Source: a virus
Taxonomy: Duplodnaviria > Heunggongvirae > Uroviricota > Caudoviricetes
Virus record (IMG/VR): IMGVR_UViG_2690316243_000010
DNA: 7,647 bases
Strand: one strand, 5' to 3'
Made by a program: the position numbers and the translations under genes. Below are positions 2,103-7,304 of this stretch, in pieces (the stretch's first letter is position 1; every line of letters starts with the position of its first letter). The notes beneath the pieces were generated by a model. It did not search any database. It was not told the origin of the DNA and was given only the letters and a program-made list of their open reading frames with translations.

Positions 2103-3167
2103 TCACCCCCTGAATCCCGGCGGAATTTCGGTATCCGGTTCAGAAATATGATTCACACAACGCTGGTTGTTCGTGCCGCTTACCGGGAGCAACCAGGGGT
2201 TTTCAAAATTCCGGTCCGGCCCAAAAAACGTCGTCGCTCGCTGAACAAATTCCGTTCCCGCTTTCCCGGTCGCCGCCAGGTATCTCGCGTAACGCCTCAC
2301 ACCATCCAGCATGGTCTCTGGTGGCACCCCCTCGCGCAATCTGGCCTTCCAGGCACTGAATGCGGATTTCTTCGGGTTTGCCCCGGCACGCAACGGGTAT
2401 TCCCGCCAGACCTGTTCGAACACATCCGGATAATCCACTCGTCCCACAGGCTGCCCGGTGTTTTCCGGGGCTACCCGATCGGCTTCCCGCTGAATGGCGG
2501 AATCGGCTTCAGGCTGCTGCAGTTGGAGTGATTGCTCCGGCCTTGCGGTCATCACCTGCTGCACAGCGCCCGAATCGGCTTTCAGCGCATACGCTGAATC
2601 GGCTTCCGGTGTCGAGCCTGCTGGCTGACCAGGATTGACGGTCTGAACATCCCCTGCCTGGTTCGTGGCGTTTTTTACGCCATGGACCATAGTGTTTTGA
2701 TCTTCTTTATCTGTATCTTTATCTGTATCTGTCGTGACTCGTCGTGACATGTGCGTGACATTTCGTGACGCGCCGTGACAATCGCCATTTTGTTCCCGCT
2801 TTCTTTCCCTCTCTCGCTGCGCCCTCTTGCGCTCTGCAGGAGATTTTGCGGTTTGCGAAATATTGCCGTTGTCCTCTTTAAGCACCTGGCGTTTTTCCCA
2901 TCCAGTGATTAAATCACCATCAAGTACCCGCCCCTGCATCGTCTGCAAAATTGAATCAATTACCTCTTCTGTCACGTCGAGCGCACTTGCCAAATCTTCT
3001 GTCGTGACATCAATGTGACCTCGCGTGACATTTCGTGACGCGCTCACCAGGAGGTGGATATACACTGCCATCACTGTTGCAATTGGCTGCCCTGACACCC
3101 TGGCAATTGTTCGCCACTTAGGGTCATTTGGCATGTCATGCCATAATCTGAGCCAGGCGTTAGCCAT
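2103..3167 (-). CDS. Replication initiator, lambda O functional analogue (YdaU/DUF1376-like N-terminal domain with DnaT-like C-terminal domain), about 354 aa
   Basis: Minus-strand ORF immediately upstream of the DnaC-like gene. ATG at 3167..3165 is preceded by GAGGTGA. The ORF-track start is a GTG at 3173 that overlaps this Shine-Dalgarno, so the ATG is preferred. The C-terminal region (YPDVFEQVWREYPLRAGANPKKSAFSAWKARL...) looks like the DnaT/primosomal-type domain seen in phage initiators. The gene contains phased CGTGAC iterons (see repeat features), as lambda O contains ori-lambda. Confidence 0.85.
   Translation of the reverse strand: MANAWLRLWHDMPNDPKWRTIARVSGQPIATVMAVYIHLLVSASRNVTRGHIDVTTEDLASALDVTEEVIDSILQTMQGRVLDGDLITGWEKRQVLKEDNGNISQTAKSPAERKRAQRERERKREQNGDCHGASRNVTHMSRRVTTDTDKDTDKEDQNTMVHGVKNATNQAGDVQTVNPGQPAGSTPEADSAYALKADSGAVQQVMTARPEQSLQLQQPEADSAIQREADRVAPENTGQPVGRVDYPDVFEQVWREYPLRAGANPKKSAFSAWKARLREGVPPETMLDGVRRYARYLAATGKAGTEFVQRATTFFGPDRNFENPWLLPVSGTNNQRCVNHISEPDTEIPPGFRG
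2705..2728. repeat. 12-bp tandem direct repeat, two copies of CTTTATCTGTAT, AT-rich
   Basis: Directly seen: CTTTATCTGTAT at 2705-2716 and 2717-2728, immediately left of the first CGTGAC cluster. Encodes the TDKDTDKD low-complexity linker of the initiator. Confidence 0.8.
2733..2779. repeat. Iteron cluster A: five CGTGAC copies at 10-11 bp spacing (candidate prophage origin of replication)
   Basis: CGTGAC at 2733, 2743, 2754, 2764 and 2774. Helical-phase periodicity. Located inside the initiator gene. Confidence 0.75.
2971..3043. repeat. Iteron cluster B: CGTGAC-family repeats at 10-11 bp spacing, including an exact 20-mer shared with cluster A
   Basis: GTCACG (inverted) at 2971; CGTGAC at 3003, 3024 and 3034; TGTGAC at 3014. 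The 20-mer CGTGACATTTCGTGACGCGC at 3024-3043 is identical to 2754-2773. Confidence 0.75.
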
Positions 3168-3238
3168 ACTCACCTCTTCTGATACCGAATCTTTTTACTC
3201 ACGAGTTGCCGGGAGCGATTCGATATGGCTATTGTCAG

Positions 3239-3664
3239 TCAATGTACTGCCACAGCATTTCCTGCCGGGCCACCACGGTTCATCTGATTGAAACCGGCGA
3301 TTGCCACTGCGACAAAATCATCAGCGTCTCTCACCAGTCGTTCATGCGTCTCCACCAGTTCCCGAAAATAAGCTGAACTGTGGCTGCGCATTCGAGCCAC
3401 CAGCGGAGGTGGCATTGCCCTTTCGATCGCAGGTAACAACGCCTGAATTTTTTCAACAGCGTCAGGGGTGTCTTTATCCAGCCAACGGAAAATCTTTTGG
3501 GTGTTGAGATAAAGTGTGTTGTGCTTGCTGTCGTTATGCAGAACCGGAAACGTCATTCCCAGTTCGAAATAAACCCTGGTTATTTCAGCTGCCGGAACTT
3601 TTTCACCGTCCGGATGCGCCCAGGCTTTCATCGCCATGCGGATGTGTTCATGCTTGATTTTCAT
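3239..3664 (-). CDS. ydaT: YdaT-family protein (reported functional equivalent of CII in a CP-933P-type cryptic prophage), 141 aa
   Basis: N-terminus MKIKHEHI matches my recollection of YdaT proteins. Start ATG at 3664..3662 overlaps the stop of the upstream Cro-like gene (ATGA overlap), so it is translationally coupled. Position between the cro-like gene and the replication genes mirrors lambda cII. Confidence 0.8.
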   Translation of the reverse strand: MKIKHEHIRMAMKAWAHPDGEKVPAAEITRVYFELGMTFPVLHNDSKHNTLYLNTQKIFRWLDKDTPDAVEKIQALLPAIERAMPPPLVARMRSHSSAYFRELVETHERLVRDADDFVAVAIAGFNQMNRGGPAGNAVAVH

Positions 3665-3924
3665 GAATCAACCCCCGCCGATGGTTGTGTGTTAGCCTGA
3701 AACTCAGCAGGCAAGCCGTCAGTTGGGTTGGGGTAGGTTTTACTGTCAATCTCATGTGGGGTCACCACCCATCCCGTTGCTTCACACCAACGTAATATTT
3801 TTTCTCCTGTAAGTTTTGCACGCCCCGTTATAACGTGGCTGACCATCCCTTGGGATGCGCCAACAATCTCAGCAAATGAACTCTGGGTTATATGAAAATG
3901 ATGCAAATATTCTCCAAGATTCAT
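3661..3924 (-). CDS. ydaS: Cro-like HTH DNA-binding protein (YdaS family), about 87 aa
   Basis: Small minus-strand ORF diverging from the repressor gene. ATG at 3924..3922 is preferred over the TTG at 3951 used in the ORF track, with AGGGCGG upstream. Helix-turn-helix-like segment SSFAEIVGASQGMVSHVITGRAKL. First gene of an operon followed by ydaT and the replication genes. Confidence 0.8.
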   Translation of the reverse strand: MNLGEYLHHFHITQSSFAEIVGASQGMVSHVITGRAKLTGEKILRWCEATGWVVTPHEIDSKTYPNPTDGLPAEFQANTQPSAGVDS

Positions 3925-3960: not shown

Positions 3961-4000
3961 AATAGCACTGTTATTTTTAAAAGTAAATAGTGATGCTATT
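3961..4000. promoter_or_regulatory. OR-like operator pair in the divergent promoter region: two 15-bp sites of the AATAGC-N3-GCTATT family
   Basis: AATAGCACTGTTATT at 3961-3975 and AATAGTGATGCTATT at 3986-4000, centres 25 bp apart, in the 111-bp gap between divergent ydaS-like and repressor starts. Same motif family as the 5098-5138 pair. Confidence 0.7.
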
Positions 4001-4035
4001 TCAAAGTGATTAGCAATCTTATTAGAATTGGATGT

Positions 4036-4536
4036 ATGAAAAGAAAATCATTGTCAGACACCGACCTCAACGCCGCCAGAAGACTGAAAGAAATCTGGAT
4101 GGCAAAGAAATCTCAGTTGGGATTGACTCAGGAACGTGCGGCGGAAATTATGGGGTTTTCAACACAAGGGGCGGTAAGTCACTACCTAAATGGTCAAACC
4201 CCACTAAACCTTGAGGCTGTTCTAAAGTTTGCTGGCTTACTGAAAGTTCCCCCTGAGTCAATCAGGCCAGACATGGTAGATTTGCTGCAAATTGCAAGGA
4301 TGTATTGTCGAGAACCACAGCAAGATAACATAGTCGCATTACCAGCAGACACAGAACAAACAGAGGATGAACTACCGTTTGCCGTAGAGCCGATGGAACG
4401 AGATTTAATCCATACGTTCAGAGCTTTTCCGAAAGAAGATCAAGAACACATGCTTCAGGAGATGAAAGATAAAAAAGAATCAATGGATCGTACGGTTGCG
4501 CGGTGGTTAGCTGCACAAAAAGGCCGTCGCGCCTAA
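4036..4536 (+). CDS. paaR2: CI-like prophage repressor lacking an S24 peptidase domain (PaaR2/RacR-type HTH regulator), about 166 aa
   Basis: ATG at 4036 (MKRKSL...) rather than the ORF-track start at 4006. The N-terminal HTH (LGLTQERAAEIMGFSTQGAVSHYLNGQTPLNLEAVLKFAGLLKVPPESI) is lambda CI/XRE-like. The roughly 100-aa C-terminal region is acidic with no Ala-Gly cleavage site or GDSM-type serine motif that I can see. Diverges from the cro-like gene and is followed by the TA pair. Symbol assigned by resemblance from memory. Confidence 0.75.
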   Translation: MKRKSLSDTDLNAARRLKEIWMAKKSQLGLTQERAAEIMGFSTQGAVSHYLNGQTPLNLEAVLKFAGLLKVPPESIRPDMVDLLQIARMYCREPQQDNIVALPADTEQTEDELPFAVEPMERDLIHTFRAFPKEDQEHMLQEMKDKKESMDRTVARWLAAQKGRRA

Positions 4537-4555: not shown

Positions 4556-4750
4556 ATGAGTACAGTCCTTTCCCCAATGGTTTCAGAATTTGAGACAGTT
4601 GAGCAAGAAAATAGTTACAACGAATGGCTGCGGGCCAAAGTAGCAGCAAGCCTCGCGGATCCCCGCCCGGCGATTCCGCATGATGAGGTAATGGCGGAAA
4701 TGGAACAAATTATTGCCCAAATTGCTGCTGCAACTCACAGAGGTGAATAA
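4556..4750 (+). CDS. paaA2: Antitoxin of the ParE-family toxin (PaaA2-like), 64 aa
   Basis: Small acidic protein. GAGGAG Shine-Dalgarno at 4541-4546. Stop TAA overlaps the toxin start (TAATG at 4748-4752). Sits immediately upstream of a RelE/ParE-fold toxin gene. Confidence 0.8.
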   Translation: MSTVLSPMVSEFETVEQENSYNEWLRAKVAASLADPRPAIPHDEVMAEMEQIIAQIAAATHRGE

Positions 4751-5040
4751 TGTTACCCGTTTTATGGCTACCATCTGCTCGTGATGATTTGCGCCAGATC
4801 GTAGCCTACATAGCTAAAGAAAATCCCGCGGCAGCACGCAGAATGAAAATTCGAATTGAAACATCCGTTTTGCCGCTCACAGAGCATCCTTACCTGTATC
4901 CTCCAAGCGAGCGAGTTCTTGGTCTTCGTGAAATTGTAACTCATCCTAACTACATCATCCTTTACCGAGTAACAGCATCAAGCATAGAAGTAGTAAATAT
5001 TGTGCATTCTCGAAGACAGTATCCAGGCAAAAACAGTTAA
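4750..5040 (+). CDS. parE2: ParE/RelE-superfamily toxin (ParE2-like), 96 aa
   Basis: Size, 1-nt overlap with the upstream antitoxin, and sequence character (basic C-terminal region ...IVHSRRQYPGK) are typical of ParE/RelE toxins. Followed by an intrinsic terminator. Confidence 0.85.
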   Translation: MLPVLWLPSARDDLRQIVAYIAKENPAAARRMKIRIETSVLPLTEHPYLYPPSERVLGLREIVTHPNYIILYRVTASSIEVVNIVHSRRQYPGKNS

Positions 5041-5056
5041 TTATTCCCGCCGACAG

Positions 5057-5078
5057 AACCACCTTAGGGTGGTTTTTT
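5057..5078 (+). terminator. Rho-independent terminator of the repressor-TA operon
   Basis: Stem AACCACC (5057-5063), loop TTAG, stem GGTGGTT (5068-5074), followed by a T run to 5078. Begins 17 nt after the parE2-like stop. Confidence 0.8.
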
Positions 5079-5097
5079 CTTGCCCCAACAAAAAACA

Positions 5098-5138
5098 ATA
5101 GCGATGCTATTTACATCAAAAAAAATAATGATGCTATT
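5098..5138. promoter_or_regulatory. OL-like operator pair: AATAGCGATGCTATT (perfect palindromic arms) and AATAATGATGCTATT
   Basis: Sites at 5098-5112 and 5124-5138, centres 26 bp apart, immediately downstream of the terminator and upstream of the rightward small-gene operon. Same motif as the 3961-4000 pair about 1.1 kb away. Confidence 0.7.
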
Positions 5139-6427: not shown

Positions 6428-6746
6428 CGGTGATGAAAGGAAAGAGAAAATGTTGAATGTAGCTATTGAAAACCAGAACGGGTGGAATTATAGTGCACCT
6501 GCACCTTATAAAACGGGTGCCGGGCGTGGAAACCCGAACGTTACTCGAGCGCATAGCCGCGCTGAAGCGGTTTTTTTATGCGTAATGCACAGCTCCATTC
6601 AAATTATGGTGGGATGTGCAGGGCAGTCGCAAGACTGGCCGGGTTCTCGAGTGACCGGTATTTCCACCCCTGTACGTCTCACCACCCTTATGGTCGTGGA
6701 AAACCTCGGTGGTGAGTTAATTAACTTATCACTCGAGGATGCCATC

Positions 6747-7304
6747 ATGGCTACTATCCCTGCCCTTTCTCACCCTGACGTAACCATCGAAAATGGTCGC
6801 GCTGTCACTACGTCTATTGCGATCGCAGAGTTCTTTGGCAAGCGTCACGACAATGTGTTACGTGCCATCGCAAATACTGAATGCTCACCTGAATTTAACG
6901 CCCTCAATTTTGAGGACGTCACCTACACTGACGCCAAAGGCGAAAAACGCCCGATGTACCAAATCACCAAAAACGGCTTCGTTTTCCTGGTGATGGGATT
7001 CACTGGCAAAAAAGCCGCTGCATTTAAAGAAGCCTACATTGCTGAGTTCGATCGCATGGAGGCCGAACTGCGCCAGAATAACACCCCACCCACTGACAAA
7101 ATAATTCCAGGCGATGGCCGCACCCTGGTTGTTCACTTCGACGAACGCGGCAACATCAGATTCACCGAAACCGTTCCTGATGGCGCACGGGTCTGTACCA
7201 TGGAGACTTTCCGGTTTTATCTGGAAGAACAGGGATGGACTCTTGTTAACCGGGGCGCAATTAAAAATATGACTGTAGAGCAATTACTCAAAATTCATTG
7301 TTGA
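6747..7304 (+). CDS. Rha-family phage regulatory protein (Phage_pRha domain), about 185 aa
   Basis: ATG at 6747 with GAGGA Shine-Dalgarno 7 nt upstream. Sequence block AIAEFFGKRHDNVLRAIAN...MYQITKNGFVFLVMGFTGKKAAAFKEAYIAEFDRME is characteristic of Rha/ORF6N-type phage regulators as I recall them. The in-frame upstream extension to 6450 has a possible Shine-Dalgarno but non-protein-like composition, so the start is uncertain. Confidence 0.8.
   Translation: MATIPALSHPDVTIENGRAVTTSIAIAEFFGKRHDNVLRAIANTECSPEFNALNFEDVTYTDAKGEKRPMYQITKNGFVFLVMGFTGKKAAAFKEAYIAEFDRMEAELRQNNTPPTDKIIPGDGRTLVVHFDERGNIRFTETVPDGARVCTMETFRFYLEEQGWTLVNRGAIKNMTVEQLLKIHC

Follow-up and report, generated by a model that had tools for sequence, protein, structure and literature searches.

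Several repressors of lambdoid prophages in Escherichia coli O157 lack a peptidase domain, and this lack has been linked to the failure of mitomycin C to induce these prophages (Asadulghani et al. 2009, PMC2669165). PaaR2 of the cryptic prophage CP-933P (Sp12) in E. coli O157:H7, a protein devoid of the peptidase motif and described as unresponsive to mitomycin C, forms octamers in solution and binds to the intergenic region; together with YdaS and YdaT it makes up a bistable switch resembling that of CI, Cro and CII; 5' RACE places the paaR2 mRNA among leaderless transcripts (Jurenas et al. 2021, PMC8630535). DicA of the cryptic Qin prophage in E. coli K-12 has no Ala-Gly bond; its antirepressor, Rem, relieves repression, and stochastic switching independent of any antirepressor also occurs (Ragunathan et al. 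2023, PMC10448788). The Gifsy repressors GfoR, GfhR and GtgR, lambdoid immunity repressors of ~140-150 aa, are not cleaved on induction, being inactivated instead by the antirepressors GfoA, GfhA and FsoA, and the LexA-controlled antirepressor operons of these prophages sit outside the immunity region (Lemire et al. 2011, PMC3121763).

Here, we analyse a repressor gene carried by a stretch of 7,647 nt (the window), the content of which is the early/immunity region of a lambdoid prophage. We consider it likely that this gene, in a lambdoid prophage resembling CP-933P and Qin, encodes the immunity repressor equivalent to CI and that it belongs to the PaaR/DicA class, in which the repressor does not cleave itself and the switch is thrown through the YdaS and YdaT arms and possibly by an antirepressor. 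That such a repressor is non-cleavable is not a new idea, having already been stated for PaaR2 (PMC8630535) and for several O157 prophage repressors (PMC2669165).

The minus strand of the window carries a DUF1627 gene (603-1346), a gene for a DnaC/IstB-like helicase loader (1350-2096), an O-like replication gene (2103-3173), ydaT, encoding a CII analogue of 141 aa (3239-3664), and ydaS, encoding a Cro-like HTH regulator of 87 aa from ATG 3924 (3661-3924). Divergently, on the plus strand, lie the repressor gene (4036-4536; 166 aa, ATG start, TAA stop), a paaA-type antitoxin gene (4556-4750; 64 aa) and a parE-type toxin gene (4750-5040; 96 aa), and beyond them a ydfA-like gene and an unknown ORF, an isrK-family sRNA with terminator (6501-6577), a C4 antisense-RNA family element (6602-6689), and the gene of a Rha-family regulator directly downstream of the latter; both RNA elements were recognised with Rfam. 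A 96-aa reading of ydaS from TTG 3951 is possible, and bases 112-309 of the window are N-masked. An alternative repressor start at GTG 4006 (176 aa) was rejected: it has no Shine-Dalgarno sequence, it falls among the candidate operators, and the relatives in RefSeq are annotated with 166 aa.

Gene for gene, this order is that of CP-933P (DUF1627, DnaC-like, O-like, ydaT and ydaS on one side; repressor, paaA and parE on the other), and PaaR2 has the same position and orientation in its immunity region as the repressor described here. Identity with CP-933P is 87% for the DnaC-like protein, 77% for YdaT, and 67% for both PaaA and ParE, whereas the repressor head has diverged, as have YdaS and the O-like protein (29% each). 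The assignment of the two small downstream genes is also supported by Pfam (PaaA2, E=3e-23; ParE_toxin, E=2e-17) and by matches in the PDB (PaaA2, E=1e-23; ParE2, E=7e-37). Since paaA begins 19 nt past the repressor stop with its own Shine-Dalgarno sequence, and the parE start overlaps the paaA stop (TAATG), we treat repressor, paaA and parE as one operon, of which a hairpin with T-run after parE (5052-5079, plus strand, -15.1 kcal/mol) is the likely end. At 3654-3671, where ydaS ends and ydaT starts, lies an exact YdaT operator, TTGATTTTCATGAATCAA; it follows the consensus TTGATT-N6-AATCAA, is identical to the YdaT operator of CP-933P, and has the same position as OM of that prophage (PMC9986795). 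The isrK, C4 and rha module downstream, by contrast, sets the window apart from CP-933P. Qin offers a second parallel, with the divergent Cro-like gene dicC and with ydfA...dicB after dicA, where the window has the Cro-like ydaS and a ydfA-like gene; unlike the window, however, Qin has no toxin-antitoxin pair after dicA. Lambda carries rexA-rexB as accessory genes where the window carries paaA-parE.

Closest matches to the repressor come from Shigella sonnei and a minority of E. coli. The protein matches a partial S. sonnei entry (P0001) at 100% identity and a full-length one (P0002) at 99%. Among complete E. coli genomes the best match is RMDEC465, with 96.7% identity across 1.9 kb, and its YdaS homologue is 100% identical to that of the window. 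A locus covering at least 80% of this 1.9-kb query occurs in 72 of 5,426 complete E. coli genomes.

By sequence and predicted fold, repressor residues 2-90 are an N-terminal domain of the lambda CI type, which agrees with the lambda-type N-terminal HTH that an earlier note on this DNA had described. Residues 27-74 match Pfam HTH_3 (E=8e-9), the sole phmmer matches in the PDB are to the lambda CI N-terminal domain (repressor residues 2-81/90, E=3e-9), and hhalign aligns the profile of the repressor family with full-length lambda CI at 98%, the alignment being confined to CI residues 2-82. The AlphaFold2 model, for which 39 homologues served as input (mean pLDDT 77.6), consists of a helical head (8-91), a disordered stretch (92-112, pLDDT <50) and helices at 119-129 and 133-165 (pLDDT 81-92). 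In Foldseek, the modelled head superposes on structures of the lambda CI N-terminal domain with TM scores of 0.82-0.93, normalised to the target, and 37-40% identity, and full-length CI (3bdn) is aligned to the model across only ~103 columns. Taken by itself, the head (residues 2-90) is closest, at 52% identity, to CI proteins of Stx phages, which are full-length and bear S24.

The correspondence with lambda CI does not extend to the C-terminal half. The earlier note held that the repressor contains no S24 domain and proposed a profile search against Peptidase_S24 as a check. This search is negative: Peptidase_S24 was not found with Pfam in the full repressor at E<=1, and residues 81-166 gave zero matches at E<=10, whereas the domain was recovered from lambda CI, the positive control, in the same run (E=6.8e-29). 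Nor did the repressor match any LexA/S24 model in NCBIfam, and PF00717 is present in 0 of 65 database homologues. In Smith-Waterman comparison, residues 91-166 against CI 93-237 scored 32 versus 24±3.9 in 1,000 shuffles (p~0.05), which is shuffle level, whereas comparison of the N-terminal domains of the two proteins gave z=23.6. The AlphaFold2 model contains zero beta strands and its tail is all-helical. A tblastn alignment to lambda cI that reaches CI residue 144 was set aside as a gapped extension, unsupported past residue ~90. A hidden S24 domain was likewise rejected, given that Pfam, NCBIfam, profile-profile comparison, shuffled Smith-Waterman and the structure model are all negative.

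Lambda CI has an S24 domain, a linker Ala-Gly and a Ser/Lys dyad, and the repressor of the window is without all three. The absence of a Ser/Lys peptidase motif, also part of the earlier account, is borne out by the lack of any Pfam or NCBIfam peptidase match and by the presence of a single serine, S149, in the tail. The statement that there is no Ala-Gly site needs qualification: one such pair, A66-G67, does exist, but away from the linker, within a helix of the HTH domain where KFAGLLKV aligns with LLAKILKV of lambda, and no peptidase domain is present to cut it. A sequence scan found neither a Cys-Gly pair in the repressor nor an Ala-Gly pair in the linker. Because the repressor lacks an S24 autopeptidase domain, RecA-stimulated self-cleavage is, judging from sequence and model, very unlikely, as had been proposed.

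In place of the peptidase domain, the repressor has a tail of 86 aa (residues 81-166; pI 4.98, net charge -5). Its earlier description as about 100 acidic residues was accurate only for the linker (~92-122), which is strongly acidic; the tail as a whole is shorter and moderately acidic, and its last ~25 residues are basic. A disordered acidic linker (92-112/122) is followed by a conserved two-helix module (~113-166) of PaaR type, ...LLxxFxAFPEEDQ...KKESM...ARWLAAQKxRRA. For comparison, the PaaR2 sequence was recovered from an O157:H7 genome with a 37-nt query consisting of two published primers joined; the recovered protein begins MQKKE, in agreement with the published start of PaaR2 (PMC8630535). 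Its C-terminal 44 aa are 52% identical to those of the repressor (E=5e-15). The 31% overall identity of the two proteins is confined to the tail, and the heads, that of PaaR2 of ~55 aa (in a 123-aa protein) and the ~90-aa lambda-CI-type HTH of the 166-aa repressor, are unrelated and do not align. As with PaaR2, a peptidase domain is lacking, a candidate promoter is placed as if for a leaderless mRNA, and there are clusters of candidate operators of OR and OL type. Foldseek returned nothing informative for the tail, all good matches being to the head, and no PDB entry for PaaR2 was retrieved by sequence.

The tail is also homologous to that of DicA, which is likewise short and without an Ala-Gly/S24 arrangement, and which differs in its HTH head. 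Identity with K-12 DicA is 29% across 51 aa (BLASTP E=2e-6), and positions 74-130 of the NCBIfam DicA model match the tail (E=7e-8), a match that, owing to the different head, does not reach the cut-off set for the whole protein. DicA itself is similar to Gifsy-2 GtgR (E=4e-12) through an LLxLFNxLPE motif. BLASTP of the repressor directly against GtgR gave no significant match (E=1.7); in hhalign the family profile aligns to GtgR with 96.7% probability, the LLxxFxxLPE motif included, although that profile includes tandem-HTH relatives, and the other link to the Gifsy class runs via DicA. In the Gifsy repressors LLxxFxxLPE stands at the start of the tail, as it does here, and the features of the DicA/GfoR/GtgR class (~135-165 aa, an HTH head, and a short helical tail with this motif) are all found in the repressor. 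The tail is common to at least three unrelated heads: the lambda-CI type, the PaaR2 type, and a PaaR1/DicA-like type that occurs in 132-133-aa proteins of E. coli, Salmonella, Serratia and Pluralibacter. Relatives of 244 aa have two tandem heads ahead of it. Among sequenced phages, the tail was detected at E<=0.01 in phage Evi only.

Between the divergent repressor and ydaS genes lies an OR-like cluster of three candidate operators of the form AWTAG-N5-YTATT (3961-3975, 3986-4000 and 4009-4023), the centres of which are 25 and 23 bp apart. Two more (5097-5111 and 5124-5138) form an OL-like pair past the terminator-like hairpin of the operon and ahead of the ydfA-like gene, which we read by analogy with OL/PL933P (PMC8630535). 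On both strands of the window the motif has 10 matches versus 1.2 expected, a number reached in 0 of 200 shuffles. E. coli relatives that have this head keep the sites, and CP-933P lacks them; its operators are GTTTAGTAA-type repeats and its intergenic DNA is unrelated to that between repressor and ydaS in the window. This pattern fits putative operators with an immunity specificity different from that of CP-933P. A PRM-like promoter match (4000-4028, plus strand; -35 TTCAAA, 17-nt spacer, -10 TAGAAT) precedes the repressor. Because its -10 element ends 7 nt ahead of ATG 4036 and no usable Shine-Dalgarno sequence is present, the repressor mRNA is probably leaderless, like those of cI and paaR2. 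PR- and PL-like promoters did not pass the consensus scan and are read by eye only. The place in the genetic map, the OR-like layout of three candidate operators, the OL-like cluster and the probable leaderless mRNA are all as in lambda.

We propose the following switch, which extrapolates from PaaR2 in its operator binding, its leaderless translation and its oligomeric state, since the head of PaaR2 is unrelated and identity is confined to the tail. The lambda-CI-type head would bind AWTAG-N5-YTATT at the three sites of OR and the two of OL, and the C-terminal two-helix module would provide self-association, by analogy with the octamers of PaaR2. From the PRM-like, probably leaderless promoter the repressor would direct transcription of its own gene and of paaA-parE, and it would shut down both the divergent ydaS-ydaT operon and the leftward operon from ydfA to rha. 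As no S24 domain was found, RecA should be unable to trigger self-cleavage, and the switch is for that reason expected to flip via the YdaS (Cro-like) and YdaT (CII-like) arms, either stochastically or by growth phase, as in CP-933P. Binding of an antirepressor might also flip it, as with DicA and Rem and with the Gifsy repressors. Derepression through the Cro-like/YdaT arm or an antirepressor had been anticipated in the earlier note, and these routes are documented in relatives (PMC8630535, PMC10448788, PMC3121763).

The same note went on to conclude that a non-cleavable repressor means an SOS-independent switch, which does not follow: the Gifsy prophages are induced by SOS through LexA-controlled antirepressors although their repressors stay uncleaved (PMC3121763). 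DNA-damage input depends on a LexA-controlled antirepressor elsewhere in the host, and none is visible in the window. An indirect wiring of this kind, in which a LexA-repressed antirepressor similar to GfoA, Rem or Tum, encoded outside the window by the same or another prophage, would bind the uncleaved repressor after DNA damage and strip it off DNA as in Gifsy-1, -2 and -3, seems to us a tentative proposition with perhaps a minor chance of being right. The tail speaks for it in two respects, being of the DicA type, with DicA and RacR grouped with GfoR and GtgR by Lemire et al. (PMC3121763), and being common to at least three different heads, as expected of a common docking surface. The LexA search, which spanned the window and a 42-kb part of the closest complete prophage, speaks against it. 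The window contains no perfect LexA box (CTGT-N8-ACAG), and its five one-mismatch matches are at chance level (2.2 expected); one of them, at 3968-3983, was discarded as lying inside candidate operator O1 and the AT-rich spacer. Within the 42 kb, there is no AT-rich LexA-type box and no annotated dinI or antirepressor gene, and the only two perfect palindromes were dismissed, as their spacers are GC-rich and neither dinI nor an antirepressor gene is close to them; nothing resembling the LexA-controlled dinI-antirepressor operons of Gifsy induction came to light in these stretches. In addition, the O157 prophages Sp6, Sp9 and Sp10, with repressors that lack a peptidase motif, are not mitomycin-inducible (PMC2669165), and PaaR2 is likewise described as unresponsive to the drug (PMC8630535).

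A different source of derepression would be the window itself. The Rha-family gene that the earlier note placed 2 kb downstream was confirmed, its extent most likely being 6747-7304 on the plus strand (185 aa, ATG 6747, Shine-Dalgarno GAGGA), 2.2 kb past the repressor stop; a 284-aa ORF from 6450 runs through both RNA genes. From these sequence features and the analogies that follow, Rha is a reasonable antirepressor candidate, where DicA has a demonstrated antirepressor in Rem. The fuller reading, that isrK, C4 and rha form a cognate antirepressor cassette in which Rha inactivates the repressor by binding it and a C4-like antisense RNA holds off rha translation, as in P1 c4/ant or Gifsy-1 isrK-anrP, strikes us as improbable. 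The isrK and C4 elements stand immediately upstream of rha, in a gene order that mirrors isrK-orf45-anrP of Gifsy-1, where isrK stands ahead of the antirepressor-like anrP, the expression of which switches on the antQ operon; C4 is complementary over a long stretch to the ribosome-binding region of rha (-66.4 kcal/mol, against -39.7±4.9 in shuffles); and the Rha domain is common to PHROG anti-repressor/Ant families (phrog_373, phrog_63). However, the best PHROG and NCBIfam matches name only a transcriptional regulator or Rha family protein, CP-933P has a working switch and no annotated Rha gene at the corresponding place, and rha lies behind the OL-like operators in the leftward operon, so that it would be made after derepression and would act as feedback, unless isrK has its own promoter. 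Still more doubtful is control by regulated proteolysis, in which the conserved basic C-terminus (...AAQKGRRA-COOH) would be a degron for ClpXP or another host protease and the repressor level would follow protease activity. The ...AQK(G/C/S)RRA end is kept in the repressor, PaaR2 and a PaaR1-type protein, it loosely resembles the C-terminal ClpX degron RRKKAI of MuA (PMC8138137), and the partner antitoxin PaaA2 is a ClpAP/ClpXP substrate (PMC8630535); but the argument is one of resemblance only, the C-terminus of DicA differs, and C-terminally tagged PaaR2-His and the Gifsy repressors are functional and stable enough to be purified or detected (PMC8630535, PMC3121763). Finally, the view that the gene is a decayed lambda-type cI, with a truncated peptidase domain and a tail of no specific function, is effectively refuted. 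It could appeal to the Sp12 (CP-933P) repressor having been classed as 'disrupted' by Asadulghani et al. (PMC2669165) and to the S24-bearing Stx-phage CIs as closest relatives of the head. Against this, the tail is conserved behind unrelated heads in E. coli, Shigella, Salmonella, Serratia and Pluralibacter, is modelled with confidence as a pair of helices, matches the DicA model, and has no residual similarity to the CI C-terminal domain. Because the tail follows several heads and the nearest relatives of this head are full-length S24-bearing CIs, the gene looks like a domain replacement, not a truncation.

The earlier note implied that SOS-independent control of the switch would extend to toxin expression, and here CP-933P argues to the contrary: its paaA2-parE2 genes are transcribed whichever way the switch stands, and ParE2 is not activated (PMC8630535). 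By that analogy, and because the toxin-antitoxin genes of CP-933P are transcribed in either state, the state of the switch probably matters little for toxicity.

On a more speculative note, the two-helix module might be a portable regulatory handle that recombination has joined to three or more unrelated heads, as well as to tandem ones, and that may dock antirepressors or a protease; one signal could then derepress several heteroimmune PaaR/DicA-type prophages together with their ParE toxin-antitoxin operons, the signal in the present case being the isrK-C4-gated Rha. We give this extension a low likelihood.

The significance of these findings beyond annotation is little, and what is new is confined to the joining of a known PaaR/DicA tail to a lambda-CI-type head with a putative operator set of its own, a new immunity type as read from sequence. 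For the prediction of prophage inducibility, repressors of the PaaR/DicA class are not to be scored as SOS-cleavable; equally, they are not to be assumed SOS-blind before LexA-controlled antirepressors have been looked for. The tail of PaaR is now tied to that of DicA, and the paaR-paaA-parE immunity cassette of O157:H7 also exists with a lambda-CI-type head and a different set of putative operators, in Shigella sonnei and in ~70 complete E. coli genomes.

The 166-aa immunity repressor of the window (4036-4536, plus strand) ends in a basic AAQKGRRA (4513-4533), and a basic C-terminus of the form ...AQK(G/C/S)RRA is conserved in this protein, in PaaR2 (the repressor of paaR2-paaA2-parE2 in prophage CP-933P of E. 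coli O157:H7), and in the PaaR1-type protein; it bears a loose likeness to the ClpX degron of MuA, RRKKAI. Relatives of the window protein from Logan assemblies (P0013-P0023; 240-255 aa) are tandem-HTH repressors without an S24 domain, in which the window-type lambda-CI head is followed by a second HTH of the PaaR1/DicA type and then by the shared C-terminal module.

An exact match to the published YdaT operator consensus, TTGATT-N6-AATCAA, lies at 3654-3671, spanning the ydaS stop and the ydaT start. Two more copies of the OR operator motif (AWTAG-N5-YTATT) are found at 5097-5138, directly past the terminator-like hairpin of parE, in surroundings that resemble the PR-side layout (CTATTTAC...GCTATT); judged from sequence, this pair is a candidate OL-like site upstream of the ydfA-like gene. 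The closest complete prophage, that of E. coli RMDEC465 (L005), also has, approximately 5 kb from its paaR-paaA-parE locus, a second pair of this kind that is a canonical ParD-ParE (L005 15708-16270), immediately preceded by the perfect palindrome CTGTTGTCGTCAACAG.

Two RNA elements sit inside a 284-aa ORF (6450-7304): isrK at 6501-6577, scoring 61 bits, and an antisense RNA of the C4 family at 6602-6689, scoring 77 bits. RefSeq calls a 283-aa Rha protein for the counterpart of this ORF in the closest E. coli genome. Because the Rha domain begins past an ATG at 6747 that has its own Shine–Dalgarno sequence (GAGGA), the long rha start is probably over-called. The rha translation-initiation region is complementary to C4 (-66.4 kcal/mol, versus -39.7±4.9 for shuffles). 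Elsewhere in the window, the minus-strand ORF at 48-602 is unreadable because a run of 198 N (112-309) hides its middle.

At E≤0.01, the PaaR-type tail was found in just one of the 50,697 records of a phage collection, Escherichia phage Evi (L008, LR597642.1), the locus of which is PaaR2-type. Among 5,426 complete genomes of E. coli, approximately 590 have the PaaR2 tail sequence. The PaaR-type tail is therefore a module that is frequent in prophages and almost missing from isolated phages.
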